From IMG/VR virus record IMGVR_UViG_2778261231_000012: DNA of 30,030 bases, one strand, 5' to 3'. The position numbers were made by a program, and so were the translations under genes. Positions 2,329-19,990 of the stretch are shown here, in pieces. Source of the stretch: a virus. Lineage: Duplodnaviria; Heunggongvirae; Uroviricota; Caudoviricetes. The notes beneath the pieces are model-generated. The model had not been told where the DNA came from. It made no database searches and saw nothing but the letters and a program-made list of their open reading frames with translations. Every line of letters starts with the position of its first letter. The stretch's first letter is position 1.

Positions 2329-3089
2329 ATCTCGAAAACACAGTGAAATACCACTTCGCGAAGTCAACGATGATTAGCGACGCTCCACGTGCAACCGCAT
2401 CTGACTCATTAACCGGCACTGACATTATGGCGGCGATCGGAATGACACAGAGCCGGGCTGATCTCGGGTTCAGTGCATTCCTCGGTAAGATGGATATCAG
2501 CGATTACGATCGCGAGCGAGCAATTGACCTGCTGACCAAATATGCAATTGAGCACTGCGATAAGGTTGCCGCCTTACGCAAGCTTGAGAGCGATGTTAAG
2601 CCAAAGGTAATGCAAGTTCTCGCAACTTTCGCCTTTGCTGATTACTCCCGGAGCGCCGCCAGTACCAGAACGTGCGACTGCTGCAATGGAAATAAGTTTG
2701 TCGAAGCTGAAGTAATGACGATGAAGCATATCGGACAGCCACACCTTAGCGAAAAAAGAGAGATGGTTAAGGTGCTTTGCCACAAATGCAAAGGGAAGGG
2801 TGCTCTGACCAACGCATGCCAGTGCAATGGCAAAGGAACAGTATTAGACAAAGAGAAAACTATTCTACAGCGCGGCGTTCCTGCATATAAAACCTGTACG
2901 CGCTGCAATGGGCGTGGTTATGCCAGATTGCTACCTGATAGCGTCCGTAAATACATCTGCGTAACGGTGATGGATATACCTGAAACCACGTGGCGCAGGT
3001 CTTACAAGGATTTTTTCGAAAGTCTGGTAGGTGAGTGCATCAAGCAGGAAGAGTACGCAAACCAGATGTTGAACAAAGTCACGCGATAG
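2325..3089 (+). CDS. putative late-gene antiterminator (Q-like) with DnaJ-type CxxCxGxG zinc-finger repeats
   Basis: 254-aa ORF with AGGAG SD; four Cys motifs CDCCNGNK, CHKCKGKG, CQCNGKG, CTRCNGRG; sits between the nin/rusA block and a promoter/terminator pair preceding the lysis cassette, the canonical Q position. Confidence 0.45.
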   Translation: MNLENTVKYHFAKSTMISDAPRATASDSLTGTDIMAAIGMTQSRADLGFSAFLGKMDISDYDRERAIDLLTKYAIEHCDKVAALRKLESDVKPKVMQVLATFAFADYSRSAASTRTCDCCNGNKFVEAEVMTMKHIGQPHLSEKREMVKVLCHKCKGKGALTNACQCNGKGTVLDKEKTILQRGVPAYKTCTRCNGRGYARLLPDSVRKYICVTVMDIPETTWRRSYKDFFESLVGECIKQEEYANQMLNKVTR

Positions 3090-3131
3090 TGAATGTTTTC
3101 TATGAAATAGGATTTATCTAGAAAACTACAC

Positions 3132-3160
3132 TTTACAAAGTGGCGATTTTTGTTTAATCT
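3132..3160 (+). promoter_or_regulatory. sigma70-type promoter candidate in the pR' position (late promoter)
   Basis: TTTACA (3132-3137), 17-bp spacer, TAATCT (3155-3160), about 45 bp after the Q-like stop. Confidence 0.35.
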
Positions 3161-3194
3161 GAAATCAATGATGGAGTAGTGCATTCATTCGATG

Positions 3195-3224
3195 GCCCTG
3201 AGTTAATAGCTCGGGGCTTTTTTG
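3195..3224 (+). terminator. intrinsic terminator (tR'-like) about 30-55 nt downstream of the predicted late transcription start
   Basis: 8-bp stem gccctgag/ctcggggc (one G-U), 7-nt loop, then TTTTTTG. Confidence 0.6.
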
Positions 3225-3240
3225 TATCTGCACAACAGAT

Positions 3241-3478
3241 AATTGCATTGGGGTGACCGGTTAATCCCGTTACGCTAACCGAAACAGGCGCAGTGCAATT
3301 ATCGTTGTGGTGAATGCGCAGGCTGATGCGCTAACTTATCAGCTAGATGGTGAGGTAAAGGCTCACCATGGCGACGACGGGTAGTTCATTTACATGCCGG
3401 AAAACACAGCACCGGTCACCACACACCAAATACCTACCAGGACCATAAGAGCAAAAGCTCAACGCACTACCCTCTATT
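3241..3478 (+). ncRNA. candidate structured non-coding RNA region between Q and the holin
   Basis: No ORF longer than a few codons on the + strand; hairpins at 3316-3331 and 3347-3369; 10-nt long-range complement 3252-3261 (ggtgaccggt) / 3411-3420 (accggtcacc); ends at a strong intrinsic terminator. Confidence 0.25.
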
Positions 3479-3505
3479 GCCCACCGCGCCGTGGGCTTTT
3501 TTATT
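3479..3505 (+). terminator. intrinsic terminator immediately upstream of the lysis cassette
   Basis: gcccac-cgcgcc-gtgggc hairpin followed by TTTTTTATT. Confidence 0.65.
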
Positions 3506-3609
3506 GCAGGCCGCAGATATCATTTTCAGATGCCATGTAGCAATCAGAGTCTGACGGCCTTTCCCCTACAAACACACACAGCGCCATCCGAAAAATCGGA
3601 GGTGAGGCT

Positions 3610-3888
3610 ATGACCAGAATGAGCACTATTTACAGCAGACTTTCATATGGAACAGGAACCACGCTGACCGGCTGCGGTGTATCAGCGAAGGCATATGCCG
3701 AAACAGCTAAAACAGCAAAAGAGGTGTCCTGGATGTTGGCCGACAGAATTGCAGGGTTAAGCCTGAGCGACTGGGCAATTATTGTCGGTATCGCATGCAC
3801 GGTAATCACCTGTGCAGTGAACTGGTATTTCCGCTGGAAAGAACGGGAGGATCGGCGCAATGGCTATGTCTCTAAAGCTGAAGAATAA
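3610..3888 (+). CDS. holin, S21-like pinholin class with dual-start motif (MTRM)
   Basis: 92 aa; GGAGG SD; Met1/Met4 separated by Arg (holin/antiholin dual start); weakly hydrophobic Gly/Ala/Thr-rich first TMD, second TMD WAIIVGIACTVITCAVNWYF, charged C-terminus REDRR as in recalled phage 21 S. Confidence 0.8.
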   Translation: MTRMSTIYSRLSYGTGTTLTGCGVSAKAYAETAKTAKEVSWMLADRIAGLSLSDWAIIVGIACTVITCAVNWYFRWKEREDRRNGYVSKAEE

Positions 3889-4408
3889 ATTGAGCGCAGC
3901 GGTCGTTGGTTTGATTCTTGCCGGGGCTTCCGCACCCGTGATTCTCGATCAGTTTCTGGATGAGAAAGAGGGTAACAGCTTGACAGCATATCGCGACGGC
4001 GGCGGACTCTGGACCATTTGCCGTGGTGCAACAATGGTTGATGGCAAGCCAGTAGTACAGGGCATGAAGCTGTCAGCTGAGAAATGCGCCCAGGTAAACG
4101 CCATTGAACGCGACAAGGCGCTGGCGTGGGTTGACCGAAATATCAAAGTACCACTGACCGAACCACAGAAAGCGGGTATCGCTTCTTTCTGCCCATATAA
4201 CATCGGCCCCGGAAAATGTTTCCCGTCTACGTTCTATAAGCGAATTAATGCTGGCGATACGAAAGGAGCCTGTGAAGCTATCCGCTGGTGGATTAAAGAC
4301 GGTGGCCGCGATTGCCGCCTGACCAAGGGCCAGAAGGATGGATGTTATGGGCAGGTAGAACGGCGGGACCAGGAAAGCGCACTGACGTGCTGGGGGATAG
4401 ACCAGTGA
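3860..4408 (+). CDS. SAR endolysin (T4-lysozyme-like, GH24) with N-terminal signal-anchor-release domain
   Basis: N-terminal Gly/Ala-rich TMD LSAAVVGLILAGASAPVIL; catalytic spacing E-x8-D-x5-T in EGNSLTAYRDGGGLWT; overlaps holin 3' end; start may be 3860 or 3866. Confidence 0.85.
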   Translation: MAMSLKLKNKLSAAVVGLILAGASAPVILDQFLDEKEGNSLTAYRDGGGLWTICRGATMVDGKPVVQGMKLSAEKCAQVNAIERDKALAWVDRNIKVPLTEPQKAGIASFCPYNIGPGKCFPSTFYKRINAGDTKGACEAIRWWIKDGGRDCRLTKGQKDGCYGQVERRDQESALTCWGIDQ

Positions 4409-4908
4409 AGCCGGGTGGCATCTGCATCATTGTGATTGTTGCGTTGGTAGGTTCGTTTCTCGCTGGCAGTGAGTGGACGAACCGCAGCTGGAAAATAAAG
4501 TGGGCTGACCGGGATAGCGCGGAATCTTCACAGGAAGCGAATGCACAGACCGCAGCTCGTATGATTGAACAAGGGCGAACAATCGCCCGGGATGAGGCCG
4601 TTAAAGATGCTCAAGCTCAAGCAGCGAGCGCTGCCGTTACTTCTGCTGGCCTGGCTACCACTGTTAAGCAGCTGCGCGCCGAAGCAACAAAACTCGCTAC
4701 CCACATGGACGCCGCAAAGCACACCGCAGATCTCGCCACTTCCGTCAGAAGCAAAACAGCCGGAGCCAACGCAGCAATGCTTGCCGACATGCTCGGAAGC
4801 CTTGCAGAAGCAGCTCGATATTATGCTGGACGATCTGACGAAAGCTACCGGGCAGGAATGACGTGTGAGCGGATTTACGAATCAGTGCGACTGTCGAATA
4901 ACCAATAG
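4405..4908 (+). CDS. Rz: i-spanin Rz
   Basis: GTG start overlapping the endolysin stop (GTGA); N-terminal TMD ICIIVIVALVGSFLAGS; Ala/Gln-rich coiled-coil-like periplasmic domain; contains Rz1 embedded in the +1 frame. Confidence 0.8.
   Translation: MKPGGICIIVIVALVGSFLAGSEWTNRSWKIKWADRDSAESSQEANAQTAARMIEQGRTIARDEAVKDAQAQAASAAVTSAGLATTVKQLRAEATKLATHMDAAKHTADLATSVRSKTAGANAAMLADMLGSLAEAARYYAGRSDESYRAGMTCERIYESVRLSNNQ
4592..4861 (+). CDS. Rz1: o-spanin Rz1 (lipoprotein) fully embedded in Rz
   Basis: Signal peptide with lipobox LSSC (LLLLAWLPLLSSC); proline-rich mature part; alternative start at ATG 4607. Confidence 0.75.
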   Translation: MRPLKMLKLKQRALPLLLLAWLPLLSSCAPKQQNSLPTWTPQSTPQISPLPSEAKQPEPTQQCLPTCSEALQKQLDIMLDDLTKATGQE

Positions 4909-4915
4909 GCGATTC

Positions 4916-5164
4916 ATGCTGCTAGTTTTCGTCCTCTTGTCGATATGGCTCTGTCGGCAACATGAGGAACGCCGCTGGCCTTCGGTCGGCTTTAATGTCT
5001 CATCGCTGATGCTCATCACCGAGCAACCGGCACAATTCCTGAATTTGAAGCTGATAATGGTGAGATTATCCCCGGTTATACCGGACTTATCGCCTATTCA
5101 GAATCACTGGATCACGGTGTGTTGCAACTCGACGACTAGCGGCATTACAGCAGGCATTCACTGA
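4916..5164 (+). CDS. possible small membrane protein (uncertain)
   Basis: ORF beginning MLLVFVLLSIWLC (one predicted TMD) right after Rz; no convincing SD; followed by the hairpin at 5183-5201. Confidence 0.2.
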   Translation: MLLVFVLLSIWLCRQHEERRWPSVGFNVSSLMLITEQPAQFLNLKLIMVRLSPVIPDLSPIQNHWITVCCNSTTSGITAGIH

Positions 5165-5182
5165 GTGCCTGTGATAATGCAA

Positions 5183-5201
5183 CAGCCCGTACAAAACGGG
5201 C
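5183..5201. terminator. hairpin between convergent genes (candidate bidirectional terminator)
   Basis: agcccgt-acaaa-acgggct perfect 7-bp stem between the stop of the + strand ORF (5164) and the stop of the - strand gene (5208). Confidence 0.4.
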
Positions 5202-5207
5202 TTGGAT

Positions 5208-5822
5208 TTATCTCTTTGTTGCGTTCATGGTCACATGGTAAACGAATTGGCTAAATTGGTTATCCCAGCGCCCATTATGATTAGCTGCAACTAATTGCAT
5301 TAACGCCTGCATTAACTTGCTGAACAGCAAGATTAACTTAAGTCTGTTTTTTGAACTGTCACTATCTAAGGAAACTTCTTCGGTTAATTGATTCTCGGCG
5401 TTAAAAATACCCAGTTTTGATTCTTCCATGCTGGGTTCCGTTGGATGCTGTTTAAAGTATTCAGTCAGAGTATCCTTCAGGCTCTGGATCCTTGAATCAG
5501 CAATGCTTTGTATTGATGGATTGTGTGCAAGGTCATTACGCATTGAGTTGATGGTTTTAAGTGATTTCATAAGTTCCGGGGGGATTCCCAGGTTTCCCGC
5601 CATGGATATTTTAGTATTACATTCGATTAAAAGTTTGTTTTTATCTCTTCCAAAGAGATCTTGGCAGTCACAGCATGCGCATATCCATGCTTCGACCATG
5701 CGCTCACAAAGTAGGTGAATGCGCAATGTAGTACCCACATCGTCATCGCTTTCCACTGCTCTCGCGAATAAAGATGGAAAATCAATCTCATGGTAATAGT
5801 CCATGAAAATCCTTGCATTCAT
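5208..5822 (-). CDS. hypothetical protein with HEPN-like R-N-x-x-A-H motif; candidate abortive-infection/defence moron in the lambda bor position
   Basis: 204-aa antisense ORF with GGAGG SD 4 nt before ATG; motif SMRNDLAHN at residues 94-101; locally A+T-rich DNA; transcribed against the late operon with a hairpin after its stop. Confidence 0.6.
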   Translation of the reverse strand: MNARIFMDYYHEIDFPSLFARAVESDDDVGTTLRIHLLCERMVEAWICACCDCQDLFGRDKNKLLIECNTKISMAGNLGIPPELMKSLKTINSMRNDLAHNPSIQSIADSRIQSLKDTLTEYFKQHPTEPSMEESKLGIFNAENQLTEEVSLDSDSSKNRLKLILLFSKLMQALMQLVAANHNGRWDNQFSQFVYHVTMNATKR

Positions 5823-5841
5823 AAATCCTCCAGGTAGCTAT

Positions 5842-6033
5842 ATGCAAATTGAAACAAAAGAGATGGTGATCTTTCTAAGAGATGATGGAATCTCCCTTCA
5901 GTATCCCGATGGTCAATGCGCTGGATATGGGATAGATGGGAATATGCTGATTTTTATGGGACAGAGTTGCGAACTGTTCCCAACTAAAATCATTTTGCAC
6001 GATCAGCGCACTACGAACTTTACCCACAAATAG
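5842..6033 (+). CDS. possible small ORF (63 aa from ATG) in the divergent intergenic region; doubtful
   Basis: Track ORF 5803-6033; weak SD; no recognisable motif; may simply be promoter/leader DNA for the flanking divergent genes. Confidence 0.15.
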   Translation: MQIETKEMVIFLRDDGISLQYPDGQCAGYGIDGNMLIFMGQSCELFPTKIILHDQRTTNFTHK

Positions 6034-6121
6034 TCAGGTAATGAATCCTGATATAAAGACAGGTTGATAAATCAGTCTTCTACGCGCATCGCACGCGCAC
6101 ATCAAAGAGAGTCTTTCAGTA

Positions 6122-6188
6122 GTGAGCCTGGGTGATGCCGTTAGGTTGCGTTTACCTCTCGGGCGGCATTGCCGTGCGACAGGCTCAC
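6122..6188 (+). promoter_or_regulatory. long nested stem-loop in the 5' leader of the 6208 gene
   Basis: gtgagcctg (6122-6130) pairs with caggctcac (6180-6188); inner atgccg (6135-6140) with cggcat (6164-6169); innermost aggt/acct; ends 5 nt before the AAGGA SD. Confidence 0.4.
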
Positions 6189-6207
6189 GCCTAAAAGGAA
6201 ATATTCC

Positions 6208-6936
6208 ATGAGTAACAAAATCATTACGCTATCTGGCGCTGCTAATGAAGTGCTTTATGCGCTGTTTTTCCGTGGCGCGTTGCTGTCTGGTGATCTGCCT
6301 TCTAAATCTGGCACAGCCGAATTGCGCGAGCTTGGTTTTGCTGAAACCAGACACACAGCAACTGAATACCAGAAAGAAAATCACTTTACCTTTCTGACAT
6401 CAGAAGGGCAGAAATTTGCCGTTGAACACCTGGTCAATACGCGTTTTGGTGAGCAGCAATATTGCGCTTCGATGACGCTTGGCGTTGAGATTGATACCTC
6501 TGCTGCACAAAAGGCAATCGACGAGCTGGACCAGCGCATTCGTGACACCGTCTCCTTCGAACTTATTCGCAATGGAGTGTCATTCATCAAGGACGCCGCT
6601 ATCGCAAATGGTGCTATCCACGCAGCGGCAATCGAAACACCTCAGCCGGTGACCAATATCTACAACATCAGCCTTGGTATCCAGCGTGATGAGCCAGCGC
6701 AGAACAAGGTAACCGTCAGTGCCGATAAGTTCAAAGTTAAACCTGGTGTTGATACCAACATTGAAACGTTGATCGAAAACGCGCTGAAAAACGCTGCTGA
6801 ATGTGCGGCGCTGGATGTCACAAAGCAAATGGCAGCAGACAAGAAAGCGATGGATGAACTGGCTTCCTATGTCCGCACGGCCATCATGATGGAATGTTTC
6901 CCCGGTGGTGTTATCTGGCAGCAGTGCCGTCGATAG
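6208..6936 (+). CDS. hypothetical protein (242 aa), unknown function, immediately upstream of cos
   Basis: ORF with AAGGA SD 7 nt upstream of ATG 6208; no motif I can recognise. Confidence 0.65.
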   Translation: MSNKIITLSGAANEVLYALFFRGALLSGDLPSKSGTAELRELGFAETRHTATEYQKENHFTFLTSEGQKFAVEHLVNTRFGEQQYCASMTLGVEIDTSAAQKAIDELDQRIRDTVSFELIRNGVSFIKDAAIANGAIHAAAIETPQPVTNIYNISLGIQRDEPAQNKVTVSADKFKVKPGVDTNIETLIENALKNAAECAALDVTKQMAADKKAMDELASYVRTAIMMECFPGGVIWQQCRR

Positions 6937-6949
6937 TGTGCAATTGATA

Positions 6950-7181
6950 ATTATTATCGTTTGCGGGTCCTTTCCGGCGATCCGCCTTGTTACGGGGCGG
7001 CGTCCGCGCAGATTCTCGCTATTTATGAAAATTTTCTGGTTTATGCCATTTCCGTTCTTCTTCTTGTTTACTCATTGTTTTTGTTAAAAACGTCCTCTCT
7101 CCAGAAAGGAAATGCTGAGCAAGGAAAACGGAAGTTTACCGTTGATTGTTTCCTTTCTCTGTTTTTTGCCAGGAGTAAGCC
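6950..7181 (+). other. cos site (cosQ-cosN-cosB) of lambda type; predicted 12-nt cohesive end GGGCGGCGTCCG at 6995-7006
   Basis: Strong resemblance to the recalled lambda left end: ACG/GGGCGGCG(T)CC(G)CGC...TTCTCGCTATTTATGAAAATTTTC.GGTTTA...TTTCCGTTCTTCTTC...TTTCCTTTCTCTGTTTTT, immediately upstream of Nu1. Confidence 0.8.
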
Positions 7182-7727
7182 ATGGAGGTTAACAAAAAAC
7201 GCTTATCCGAAATTTTCGGGGTAAGCGTCCGAACGATTCAGAACTGGCAGGAGCAAGGTATGCCGGTTGTCCGCGGTGGTGGCAAAGGTAATGAGGTTCT
7301 CTTTGAATCTGCTGCTGCAATCGAATGGTACAGTGCGCGCGATGCAGCTATAGAAAATGAAAAGTTGCGGAAGGAAGTTGAAGATCTCCGTATCGCTTCT
7401 GAGTCCGATCTTCAACCTGGCACGATTGAATATGAGCGACACCGACTTACGCGAGCTCAGGCTGACGCTCAGGAATTAAAAAATGCAAAAGAGTCCGCTG
7501 AAGTGGTGGAGACCGCATTCTGCACGTTCGTGCTGTCGCGGGTAGCCGGAGAAATCGCCAGCATTCTCGATGGAATACCTCTGTCGGTTCAGCGGCGCTT
7601 CCCGGAGCTGGAGAACCGACATATTGATTTCCTCAAGAAGGACATCATTAAGGCCATGAACAAGGCAGCTGCGCTGGATGAAATGATACCGGGGTTGCTG
7701 AGTGAATATATCGAACAGTCAGGTTAA
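7182..7727 (+). CDS. nu1: terminase small subunit Nu1
   Basis: Close match over its full length to recalled lambda Nu1 (MEVNKK...IRTIQNWQEQGMPV.RGGGKGNEV...[10 protein letters not shown]). Confidence 0.95.
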   Translation: MEVNKKRLSEIFGVSVRTIQNWQEQGMPVVRGGGKGNEVLFESAAAIEWYSARDAAIENEKLRKEVEDLRIASESDLQPGTIEYERHRLTRAQADAQELKNAKESAEVVETAFCTFVLSRVAGEIASILDGIPLSVQRRFPELENRHIDFLKKDIIKAMNKAAALDEMIPGLLSEYIEQSG

Positions 7728-17496: not shown

Positions 17497-19990
17497 TCTG
17501 GTCGTTAACCTTGACGTTAACTCGACGAAATTTAACGAGCAGCTTAACTACGTCAAAAAAGAATTAAAGCAGACTGGCAGCGCGGCGAACGACGAAGCGC
17601 TACGGATCCAGCAGTCCTTTAGCCGCCAGGAGAACGCCGCGCGCAAGGCGGGTATTTCAATAGGCCAGTATAACGCAGCAATGCGTATGCTTCCGGCGCA
17701 GTTTACCGATATAGCTACGCAGCTAGCGGGCGGGCAGAACCCATGGCTGATTCTGCTTCAGCAGGGCGGTCAGGTTAAGGACTCCTTTGGCGGGATAATA
17801 CCAACATTCAGGGCCTTACTGGGTACGATCTCACCGTTGATGGTCGGCATCGGTGCACTGTCCGCCGCAACGGGTGCGCTGTTCTATGCCTGGTACCAGG
17901 GCTCATCCACACTATCTGACTTCAACAAAACGCTGGTACTGTCGGGGAACACGGCCGGATTGACTGCCGATCGTATGTTGGCGCTGGCACGAAACGGCCA
18001 GGCAGCGGGGCTGACGTTCAATCAGACCAGCGAAGCCCTGAGCGAGCTTATCAACGCGGGGGTGGGCGCGAGTTCGCGCTTTGATGAAATGAGCCAGGCG
18101 GTGGCGCGATTTACTGATGCCTCCGGCGTGCCGGTGGAAAAAGTCGCAGCCGCATACGGCAAGCTCACTACTGACCCTACATCAGGCCTGATCGCGATGG
18201 CTCAGCAGTTCCACAACGTTACGGCCGAACAGATTGCCCATGTGGCACAGCTGCAGCGTGCCGGTGATGAGGCTGGCGCACTGCAGGCGGCTAATCAGGC
18301 TGCTACTGCCGGATTCAACGATCAGACCAAGGCCATCCGCGACAATATGGGGACGATTGAGTCTTCAGCGGATTCCCTGAAGCGTGCCTTCAAGTCGATG
18401 TGGGATGCTGCACTTGATATTGGCAGACCTGACACCGCCCAGGAGATGGTGGCAAAAGCCCAGGCCGCGTTTAAAAAGGCTGATGAAATCTGGAATCTGC
18501 GTAAAGGCGATCATTATGTGAATGATGAGGCCCGCGCCCGGTTCTGGAATGATCGTGAAACGGCCAGACTGGCACTGGATATGGCGCAGCAGCAGGCTGG
18601 TATTGCCAAAGCGAACGAAGAGAATGCTTCCCGTGAAGCGGTCGCAGAGTCCGATCGTCAGAAATATGCCGCGCAGGCTCAGGCCAACTATGCCAAAACC
18701 CAAACTGCCCTTGAGAAATACACGGCCAGGCAGAGCGAGCTCAACAAGGCGCTGAAAGAGGGGCGGATCCTCCAGGCTGACTACAACATCAACCTGGCTG
18801 CCGCGAAAAAAGAGTACGAAGACACCCTTAAAAAGCCGAAGAAGACCCCGGCAATCAGAACCCCCGCAGGTGCCCGTGCCACCGATACGGCCAGTGCCCA
18901 GACGCTGGAGCTACAGACACAGCTGCGCACCCTGCAGGAGCATAAGAGCATCAATGACACCATCAGCCAGCAGCGTCAGGAGCTGTGGCGTCAGCAGTCC
19001 CGCTTTACGGTTCTGGAAGAGGCCGCGAAGACCCGAACGCTTTCTGCTGAGGAAAAATCCCTGCTGGCCAGTAAAAGTGAGGTGCTTTCCCGTGCGGAGC
19101 TGAATGCGAAGCTCGGCGATCAGATAGTGGCGCAGGAGCGGCTTAATCGCCTGCAGGATACGTCCCAAAAATACGTCACGCAGATCGGCGAGAAAACCCG
19201 AGCCCTTGCGGAAAGTGCTGGTATGAGCAGTCGTGCAGCACAACGTCGCAATGAAGAGGCCCAGCTTCTTCAGGGCTGGAAAAATGGTGGTGGTTCGGAG
19301 AACGATGCTGGTTATCAGAATGAGCTGCAGGCGCTGCAGGCGTATTACGCCGAGCAGGATAAGCTGCGGGACGACTGGCAGTCCGGAGCCAAATCCGCAT
19401 GGGCAGATTATGTTGATTCTGCTTCAGATGCTTATGGCCAGATGAAGTCGGCTGCCACCAGTGCGTTTGATGGCATCGGGCAAAATATGGCTGACATGCT
19501 GACGCGCGGAAAGGCTGACTGGGCTGACTTCACCCGCTCCACGCTCTCCATGCTGACACAGATCCTGCTGAAACAGGCGATGGTAGGCCTGGTGGATTCA
19601 GCGACAACCGCGCTGGGATTTGCAGGTGGCGGTTATACCGGTTCAGGCGGGAAATATGAACCTGCAGGTGTCGTTCACCGTGGTGAATTTGTTTTCACCA
19701 AAGAGGCTACCAGCCGGATCGGCGTCGGCAATCTTTACCGGATGATGAAAGGGTATGCCACGGGTGGGTATGTCGGGGGCGGTGGTACAGGCCCGGCTGC
19801 AGCACCTTTCGGTGTCAGTGTATATGCCCCGGTGACGGTCGAGAATGCTTCCGGTAACGCACAGCAGCAAAACGACGGAGACAGGCTGGGTAAGGCGTAT
19901 CAGCAGGTGATTAACAAATCTGTCAACGATGGTATCGCCAGGGCAATCCAGCCCGGTGGGCTTATCTGGAATGCGAACAATCGCAGGTAA
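17474..19990 (+). CDS. H: tail tape measure protein gpH
   Basis: 838-aa ORF, largely alpha-helical and Ala/Gln-rich with a Gly-rich C-terminal region; follows G-T as in lambda. Confidence 0.95.
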   Translation: MAQTAVGDLVVNLDVNSTKFNEQLNYVKKELKQTGSAANDEALRIQQSFSRQENAARKAGISIGQYNAAMRMLPAQFTDIATQLAGGQNPWLILLQQGGQVKDSFGGIIPTFRALLGTISPLMVGIGALSAATGALFYAWYQGSSTLSDFNKTLVLSGNTAGLTADRMLALARNGQAAGLTFNQTSEALSELINAGVGASSRFDEMSQAVARFTDASGVPVEKVAAAYGKLTTDPTSGLIAMAQQFHNVTAEQIAHVAQLQRAGDEAGALQAANQAATAGFNDQTKAIRDNMGTIESSADSLKRAFKSMWDAALDIGRPDTAQEMVAKAQAAFKKADEIWNLRKGDHYVNDEARARFWNDRETARLALDMAQQQAGIAKANEENASREAVAESDRQKYAAQAQANYAKTQTALEKYTARQSELNKALKEGRILQADYNINLAAAKKEYEDTLKKPKKTPAIRTPAGARATDTASAQTLELQTQLRTLQEHKSINDTISQQRQELWRQQSRFTVLEEAAKTRTLSAEEKSLLASKSEVLSRAELNAKLGDQIVAQERLNRLQDTSQKYVTQIGEKTRALAESAGMSSRAAQRRNEEAQLLQGWKNGGGSENDAGYQNELQALQAYYAEQDKLRDDWQSGAKSAWADYVDSASDAYGQMKSAATSAFDGIGQNMADMLTRGKADWADFTRSTLSMLTQILLKQAMVGLVDSATTALGFAGGGYTGSGGKYEPAGVVHRGEFVFTKEATSRIGVGNLYRMMKGYATGGYVGGGGTGPAAAPFGVSVYAPVTVENASGNAQQQNDGDRLGKAYQQVINKSVNDGIARAIQPGGLIWNANNRR

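Follow-up and report, generated by a model that had tools for sequence, protein, structure and literature searches.

Structured 5' leaders of about 100 nucleotides (nt) that abut or overlap a Shine-Dalgarno (SD) sequence, contain nested and pseudoknotted helices and act in cis on the next gene are known from the double pseudoknot of the Escherichia coli alpha operon (S4), the pseudoknot of rpsO (S15) and the leader of lambda N with its RNase III site. In the c4, CI and CA RNAs of P1, P7, P4 and N15 (immI-type) and in IsrK of Gifsy-1, the loop and bulge of a phage hairpin pair with two upstream segments, and these RNAs are located upstream of antirepressor-type genes (Rha, KilA-N, P22_AR_N). 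Classical morons are promoter-gene-terminator units, each transcribed from a promoter of its own and expressed in lysogens. Lambdoid morons (e.g., lambda bor and lom) and the pre-packaging defence hot spot (He et al. 2024) place interchangeable accessory genes in the slot between the lysis genes and cos/terminase. Here we describe a structured RNA leader that precedes the gene for a 242-amino-acid (aa) protein in IMG/VR record IMGVR_UViG_2778261231_000012, a 30,030-nt stretch of a Caudoviricetes virus (hereafter the window, to which all coordinates refer unless a locus is named). An initial annotation of positions 6122-6936 had drawn attention to this gene and to a hairpin in front of it.

The leader shares with the alpha-operon, rpsO and lambda N leaders its size, its nested and pseudoknotted helices and its place against the SD of the next gene, on which it would likewise act in cis, but it has no sequence or model similarity to them (no match to Alpha_RBS or any other Rfam family). 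Unlike the alpha-operon and rpsO leaders it is not autoregulatory, as the protein encoded downstream (hereafter the cargo) varies; in addition, it sits behind a terminator in a late operon, and no trans-acting factor is known for it. With the c4/CI/CA RNAs and IsrK it has in common the pairing of a loop and a bulge with two upstream segments and a position upstream of antirepressor-type genes. It differs from them in matching neither C4 nor IsrK and in having no downstream target repeat and, compared to the c4/CI/CA RNAs, in lying in the late operon instead of the immunity region and in preceding many non-regulatory cargo genes. Its slot is that of the lambdoid morons, and the genes of TaiEcA and AtiEcA occupy the same slot in the window. 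By contrast to the classical morons, the leader cassettes consist of a terminator, a structured leader and a late-strand gene, with no recognisable promoter.

Structure and covariation of the leader RNA

The initial annotation had described the 5' leader of the 242-aa gene as a nested hairpin of about 67 nt at positions 6122-6188. This hairpin (67 nt) was found to fold at -35.3 kcal/mol compared to a mean of -23.3 ± 3.1 kcal/mol for shuffled sequences (z = -3.85), and none of 200 shuffles folded as well. Its proximity to the SD was upheld, with the distance corrected from 5 to 6 nt. As a description of the whole leader, however, the hairpin proved incomplete, as the conserved structure is larger and extends from 6084 to 6197, inside the SD. 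The leader spans 6084-6207 (124 nt) in the window and 104-133 nt across copies. It is a compact double pseudoknot of roughly 115 nt with six helices (H1, P0, P3 and P4 plus the pseudoknots P1 and P2), with the hairpin at 6122-6188 (P3 and P4) as its core. A reading of this hairpin as a terminator or attenuator was rejected, since it is followed by GCCUAAAAGG with no U-run and a terminator scan found nothing there on either strand. The parts of the leader and the gene that follows it are listed below.

6084-6087 with 6095-6098, plus strand: 5' hairpin H1, GCGC with GCGC, enclosing the 7-nt loop AUCGCAC; present in the minimum free energy (MFE) fold of the whole leader
6089-6094 with 6174-6179, plus strand: P1 (pseudoknot 1), a kissing interaction of UCGCAC in the H1 loop with GUGCGA in the bulge; identified by covariation
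6107-6111 with 6156-6160, plus strand: P2 (pseudoknot 2), GAGAG of the linker with CUCUC of the apical loop; identified by compensated variants
6113-6119 with 6191-6197, plus strand: closing helix P0, CUUUCAG with CUAAAAG, with a central C.A mismatch; spans the first 3 nt of the SD
6122-6130 with 6180-6188, plus strand: P3 (9 base pairs, bp), 95% paired, double changes in 9 of 9 pairs
6131-6140 with 6164-6173, plus strand: P4 (10 bp), 83% paired, double changes in 9 of 10 pairs
6141-6163, plus strand: apical loop, containing a subtype-specific insert
6174-6179, plus strand: bulge of 6 nt between P3 and P4, the 3' strand of P1
6195-6199, plus strand: SD AAGGA, 8 nt 5' of the ATG (6208-6210), read from the sequence
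6208-6936, plus strand: coding sequence of 242 aa with ATG start, phi80 gp66 (open reading frame, ORF, x171.28)

Copies of the leader were gathered from three sources: an IMG/VR pattern scan anchored on the 5' half, a scan anchored on the 3' half only that gave an unbiased view of variation in the 5' half, and a covariance model (R1) that was built from the nested helices alone and added divergent copies. By this approach, 101 unique full leaders were obtained. In a MAFFT alignment (A3), 86.7% of the cells were paired compared to 36-46% with slid partners, and none of 500 shuffles equalled this value. In a covariance-model alignment of 104 distinct sequences (A7), 90.3% of the cells were paired compared to 22-47% in slid controls, compensatory double changes were detected in 32 of 40 pairs, and the covariation score was 0.290 compared to at most 0.080 in the controls. 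Thus, the test of covariation across homologous phages that had been proposed with the initial annotation found the hairpin conserved, with covarying pairs in about 100 related sequences. Many G.U pairs in A7 would become A.C on the opposite strand, and the frequency of such strand-specific pairs shows that plus-strand RNA is the folded species. The conserved positions were found to lie nearly all inside helices; the linkers and loops are variable, the linker in both sequence and length.

Each helix was examined for its own evidence. H1 was paired in 99.8% of the cells of A7, with a compensatory GCGU/ACGC variant in loci L153 and L180. P1, which was left out of the covariance model so that the alignment is not fitted to it, was paired at 98.4% with double changes in 6 of 6 pairs, and fully compensated variants were detected (among them UCUCAC/GUGAGA, UCGUAC/GUACGA, UUCACC/GGUGAA, UCACAC/GUGUGA, UCGCAU/AUGCGA and ACGCCCG/CGGGCGU). 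This pseudoknot was recovered de novo by RNAalifold and, in a swap test, the strands formed 6 of 6 bp in 95% of their own pairs compared to 16% of cross-type pairs. For P2, at least eight compensated variants were detected (GAAAG/CUUUC, CGAGAG/CUCUCG, CACAGAA/UUCUGUG, CUCAGAA/UUCUGAG, ACCCGAG/CUCGGGU, CCAAGAA/UUCUUGG, CGAUAA/UUAUCG and CCCCGAG/CUCGGGG), and the helices formed with the own partner averaged 6.2 bp compared to 4.6 bp with swapped partners. The column statistic was weaker for P2 (68% paired), as a 1-nt register shift between leader subtypes dilutes the column counts.

P0 was paired at 99% in A7. This helix is near-invariant in the common leader types and covaries in divergent copies (UUUGAAAUG/CAUUUCAAA in L151:8106-8239 and CCUUUCGGGGGG/CCCACCCAAAGG in L027:2122-2250), and the sole 3' position of P0 that varies freely is the one facing the mismatch. 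Together P0, P3 and P4 form a long three-part stem; these three helices and H1 are all present in the whole-leader MFE fold, which also pairs G6198 with U6112. An additional hairpin in the apical loop is present in some leader subtypes and absent from others; the window has the long form and the phi80 gp66 leader the short form. A difference of about 13 nt, inserted in the window leader relative to that of phi80, was noted.

Position, cargo genes and distribution

In annotated examples, the leader was always located directly 5' of a start codon on the same strand and ended at the SD of that gene, with an AAAGG-to-start spacing of 7-9 nt in 81 of the 101 unique leaders. An intrinsic-terminator T-run was found upstream in 83 of 95 distinct upstream contexts, behind stems that vary in sequence. 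The gap between the end of the T-run and the leader is usually 3-18 nt (3-4 nt in 42 of these contexts, 16-18 nt in 27). In the window, the tai/ati module stands in place of the upstream terminator, and no sigma-70-like promoter was found upstream of the leader. Most copies lie between the lysis cassette and terminase/cos; others are among tail genes or right behind a late promoter and terminator, as in L099, where a pR'-like promoter (726-755) is followed by a terminator (~790-816), the leader (831-960), the cargo gene and a holin gene. In phi80, the region of the leader belongs to the Q-controlled late operon (He et al. 2024, PMC11364771). Since the leader lies behind terminators, its RNA is seemingly made only when Q-modified, antiterminated polymerase reads through into the late genes.

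Behind the 101 leaders, cargo genes with at least 22 unrelated N-terminal modules were found. Pfam identities among the cargos include KilA-N with P63C, P22_AR_N, HNH_3, glycosyltransferase 2 and Phage_Tail_Tip, in addition to several orphans. KilA-N cargos occur in HK620 (hkbK) and Klebsiella phage 2b, Rha cargos in HK639, CobraSix and yong1, an N15-gp59-like protein in FSL SP-016, and unnamed ORFs in HK106 and AsXd-1. Each leader subtype was seen with several cargos, and a given cargo was seen behind different subtypes. With cargo this variable, the leader is best described as a generic portable module and is neither an autoregulatory site nor specific for gp66. The suggestion of the initial annotation that the leader is a regulator of the 242-aa gene in particular is thus not borne out. 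The leader would serve temperate phages of the Enterobacterales as a portable module that acts in cis.

By BLAST with positions 6040-6210 as query, 120 nt of the leader were matched in 56 phage records at 71-84% identity, almost always in DNA that carries no annotation. The matched phages include HK620, HK639, HK106, mEp213/237/390, Salmonella S107 and FSL SP-016, as well as phages of Klebsiella, Enterobacter, Citrobacter and Hafnia. The leader was detected in 520 of 5426 complete E. coli genomes, annotated in none, and in at least 120 IMG/VR contigs; the window copy is 100% identical to that of E. coli Nissle 1917. Of the matches listed in a scan of genome contigs for the 5' pattern, nearly all were chance occurrences in GC-rich genomes, and one was a full element, on a Raoultella contig. 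Rfam 15 gave no match on the leader when the whole window was searched at gathering score, none on 5950-6260 at E <= 10 and none on seven other leader loci at E <= 1. The families without a match include C4 antisense RNA, IsrK, Alpha_RBS, the riboswitches and the small ribozymes. ARAGORN detected no mimicry of tRNA or transfer-messenger RNA in the leader. A collection of papers was searched by sequence strings and by topic (phi80/rha/IHF, structured RNAs near antirepressors, morons and lysis cassettes), and no description of the leader was found within it. Taken together, these results point to a widespread RNA family that has apparently not been described so far.

Phage phi80 carries two copies of the leader, one ahead of rha and one ahead of gp66; a second copy was sought within the window and not found there. 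Two copies were seen in many other phages. Divergent second copies (41-55 bits) were located at L099:726-960, L151:8106-8239, L092:5979-6116, L041:2185-2322, L027:2122-2250 and L097:9590-9718, and the divergent copies of L099 and L151 lie between an upstream Q-like gene and the lysis genes. On three lambda-like contigs (L033:605-682, L069:9344-9418 and L128:3502-3609), the leader is reduced to its 5' third or half, with H1, CUUUCAG and the P2 strand, and joins a lambda-type cosQ directly, with no cargo gene. These partial leaders look like remnants that may have arisen by deletion from a leader-cargo cassette.

Proposed action of the leader and its alternatives

Covarying helices abut and overlap the SD (3' strand of P0 at 6191-6197, SD at 6195-6199), the arrangement expected of a cis-regulatory 5' leader. 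The RNA-level regulation suggested by the initial annotation is therefore plausible for this conserved, covarying structure next to the SD. We infer that a portable double-pseudoknot leader of the late operon sets the translation initiation of accessory cargo through P0 on the SD, a reading to which we assign a probability of roughly 0.55. By this model, the leader RNA would be made only by read-through late transcription, the closing helix P0 would hold the 5' half of the SD, and this hold would attenuate or gate the initiation of cargo translation. The leader would also fill an otherwise naked untranslated gap with structure, such that the stretch from the terminator hairpin to the SD is nearly free of single-stranded RNA.

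Several points weigh against translational control of this kind. An effect of the leader RNA on translation is a prediction from sequence. In most copies, the SD overlaps P0 by no more than 3 nt. Occlusion of the SD is also not general, as a separate UAAGG lies just outside P0 in a few of the divergent leaders (L092:5979-6116 and L041:2185-2322). Conserved nucleotides that are unpaired are rare, a pattern that would also fit the binding of a protein or a role of the structure alone, in stability or as an insulator. Much of the sequence set was gathered with patterns derived from the element itself, a bias that is partly controlled by the scan anchored on the 3' half and by the BLAST matches. 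Finally, only one nucleotide separates P2 from P0 on the 5' side, which leaves two possible geometries. P4 may fold back along P3 (10 and 9 bp, near-equal) with P2 stacked on P0, which is the only arrangement in which P2 and P0 would co-form, or the two helices might be alternative switch states.

The second of these geometries underlies the proposal that the leader is a riboswitch or a protein-responsive operator, in which P2 and P0 would be exclusive states. A change between these states, driven by a ligand, a protein of the host or phage or the elongation speed of Q-modified polymerase, would turn cargo translation on or off. Both helices covary, the formation of both requires a sharp fold-back, the leader domain is similar in size and complexity to known aptamers, and, with a terminator ahead of the leader, its RNA would come only from antiterminated polymerase. 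The junctions and loops, however, hold hardly any conserved nucleotides of the type found in ligand pockets (the linker varies in sequence and length), the heterogeneous functions of the cargos suggest no common metabolite, and the near-equal P3 and P4 would permit all helices together; we regard a switch as rather unlikely. A somewhat better candidate, although still an unlikely one, is a processing or stability element, in which P0, P3 and P4 together with the terminator hairpin would leave the untranslated gap with no single-stranded RNA, would block scanning and cleavage by RNase E or form an RNase III site, as in the T7 intergenic sites and the lambda N leader, and would protect or mature the cargo mRNA instead of gating the ribosome. 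The contiguity of the terminator hairpin and the leader (3-4 nt in 42 of 95 contexts), the extension of the leader right to the SD, the near absence of conserved unpaired nucleotides, the independence of the leader from its cargo and the unoccluded SD of some divergent copies are all consistent with this explanation. A simple hairpin would suffice for such a role, and the covarying P1 and P2 and the SD-pairing P0 would be left as extras.

Three further explanations fare worse. One is a processed antisense RNA of the c4/CI type (P1 c4, P4 CI, N15 CA), in which the bulge and loop would pair with upstream sites, as counterparts of a1/b1, and with targets elsewhere to control antirepressor-like genes. 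The leader recalls such an RNA in that its bulge and apical loop are exposed and each have a partner strand further upstream, and in that Rha, KilA-N and P22-antirepressor proteins are numerous among the cargos. We consider this explanation improbable, given that no C4, IsrK or other Rfam family was matched even at E <= 10, that no a2/b2 target set (copies of the P1 and P2 5' strands) was detected near the ribosome binding site or elsewhere in 3000-7300, and that genes other than regulators, such as those for HNH and glycosyltransferase proteins, also follow the leader. Even less can be said for the model of the initial annotation, by which the leader is dedicated to the 242-aa gene and this gene and the divergent 'HEPN-like' gene upstream make up a pair of effector and immunity protein. 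In phi80 and the Nissle prophage, the two genes are indeed neighbours of divergent orientation. The proposed check of co-occurrence, however, found them together in only 2 of 26 gp66-family loci, namely phi80 and the near-identical Nissle prophage, and the leader is common to at least 22 cargo types. The HEPN-like gene is that of TaiEcA, whose antagonist is AtiEcA (orf64), and a drop in titre was reported for the single deletion of orf64 only, with none reported for that of orf66 (He et al. 2024, PMC11364771). We thus hold this model to be very improbable. Least credible is a DNA-level recombination linker, a boundary sequence through which phages would exchange cassettes by homologous recombination, with no RNA function. 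The independent assortment of leader subtypes and cargos and the truncated half-leaders fused to cosQ would agree with a linker, but the double changes in 32 of 40 pairs and the strand-specific G.U pairs go beyond what DNA homology alone explains. The linker and RNA roles are not mutually exclusive.

If its structure is functional, the leader would represent a widespread and apparently uncatalogued RNA family, which about 10% of complete E. coli genomes carry and which recurs among phages of Escherichia, Salmonella, Klebsiella, Enterobacter, Citrobacter and Hafnia. Such a family would mark and control accessory cassettes in a slot that harbours defence and counter-defence genes (Tai, Ati), and its sequence and structure would be a tag by which cargo genes could be found. 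It would also offer a portable module of natural origin for expressing genes in the late phase, and a tractable system in which to study how a compact double pseudoknot acts on translation. A bolder extension, which is tentative and on balance doubtful, is that the leaders form a new class of phage riboregulators. As late-only double-pseudoknot switches responding to a ligand, a protein or the speed of the polymerase, they would decide the translation of interchangeable defence, counter-defence and antirepressor cargo and would serve as a common late-operon adaptor for any cargo, with gp66 as a tail-tip or tape-measure mimic in a Tai-type arms race.

The gp66 protein and the neighbouring genes

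The 242-aa gene was confirmed as annotated, and its product was found to be 98.3% identical to phi80 gp66 (ORF x171.28, 'similar to N15 gp59'). The initial annotation had recognised no motif in this protein. Homology search places it in a family, as phrog_17079 (the N15 gp59 family) matches it over its full length (1-242 of 242, E 7.8e-170). At 50% identity, the gp66 family forms just 107 clusters in 1.84 billion proteins; this small family is mosaic, with modules at about residues 1-85, 86-150 and 150-242. No match was found to PDB sequences, and NCBIfam and PADLOC gave nothing meaningful.

An AlphaFold model of gp66 (mean predicted local distance difference test, pLDDT, of 75) comprises a confident winged helix at residues 10-80, a disordered middle and a long helix at 181-230. 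The N-terminal region has a pLDDT of ~90-95 over residues 10-80, with helices at 10-22, 33-42 and 65-80 and strands at 45-54 and 57-63. The top matches by Foldseek against PDB are all MarR-type winged helix-turn-helix domains, although weak (E ~4e-3), and those against BFVD are small uncharacterised phage proteins (template modelling score of 0.6-0.8, E down to 4e-7). The helix-turn-helix-like N-terminus proposed initially therefore agrees with the model, and we predict with high confidence that this domain is a winged helix-turn-helix of MarR-like fold.

The remainder of gp66 showed similarity to tail proteins. PF09327 (Phage_Tail_Tip, lambda J-like) scored 23.4 bits compared to a cut-off of 22, with only 33 of 139 profile positions covered; a putative short tail-tip (J)-like motif lies at residues 119-151. 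By hhalign, the middle of gp66 resembles residues 1058-1120 of the J protein of the window (E 0.0019, probability 14%). For the last 27 aa (6856-6936), hhalign gave an alignment to the very end of the window's tape measure protein (19907-19990; E 7.2e-5, probability 63%), the shared ending being PGG(L/V)IW....R. A profile search against PDB gave only a weak match to an F2-pyocin fibre (E 0.38). With low confidence, these similarities suggest that gp66 may be a non-essential late accessory protein that touches the tail-tip complex as a decoy, an inhibitor or an ejected protein. Such a role would fit the Tai/Ati hot spot.

NCBI records name the gp66 family 'Fur-regulated protein', and no support for this name was found when it was sought. 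The best Fur-box-like match in the 30-kb window (15 of 19 positions to GATAATGATAATCATTATC) is at 6940-6964, in cosQ just 3' of the gp66 stop codon. Fur regulation of the gp66 gene was rejected, since the only good Fur-box-like site is downstream of it. This cosQ site may underlie the 'Fur-regulated protein' names on orf64 and orf66; that the name came from a Fur titration clone is an unverified guess.

Positions ~5100-7000 of the window correspond to the right end of a phi80-like prophage (97.5% identity to phi80 44296-46146). The neighbours of the leader and the gp66 gene are as follows.

5208-5822, minus strand: TaiEcA (the 'HEPN-like' neighbour; phi80 orf63), 99.5% identical to PHI80_63
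5803-6033, plus strand: AtiEcA, 76 aa (phi80 orf64), 98.7% identical to PHI80_64; overlaps the TaiEcA gene
~6940-6994, plus strand: cosQ, coordinates transferred from the phi80 annotation
~6995-7006, plus strand: cosN, coordinates transferred from the phi80 annotation
7182-7727, downstream of cos: Nu1 (Pfam E 1.6e-95)

The gp66 gene adjoins cos, as had been annotated, with its stop codon 3 nt from the stretch named cosQ in phi80. The slot upstream of cos in the window is a known defence/counter-defence hot spot. TaiEcA blocks the tail assembly of other phages through the C-terminal part of their central tail fibre, and AtiEcA is the counter-defence protein and demonstrated partner of TaiEcA (He et al. 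2024, PMC11364771). TaiEcA has an Rx4H motif (R95-N-D-L-A-H100) and weak PADLOC matches to CARF_HEPN (E 0.004 and 0.012), and no Pfam match was detected for it (5208-5822). The term 'HEPN' is absent from the main text of the TaiEcA paper (He et al. 2024, PMC11364771). The AtiEcA gene is located upstream of the leader on the late-operon strand and is transcribed with the late operon. The annotation of the locus is corrected accordingly: the 'HEPN-like' gene is that of TaiEcA, the small ORF is that of AtiEcA, and the name 'Fur-regulated' is carried with no evidence found for it. Distant homologues of TaiEcA (28% identity) were also noted at L009:609-1079 and L151:3658-4128, in two otherwise different phages (FSL SP-016 and L151), where they are divergent and directly upstream of a leader-cargo cassette.

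In phi80, orf65 (L001:3934-4233, minus strand) is annotated antisense over the leader and the start of gp66, equivalent to about 6085-6384 of the window. The minus strand of the window there holds just a 51-aa ORF (6229-6384), and orf65 is thus probably not a gene. The Nissle 1917 prophage (L182:7854-8525) has the same tai/ati/leader/gp66 block, followed by a small terminase of the DUF1441 type where the window (6937-7727) carries one of the Nu1 type, a difference that places a mosaic junction at or near cos.

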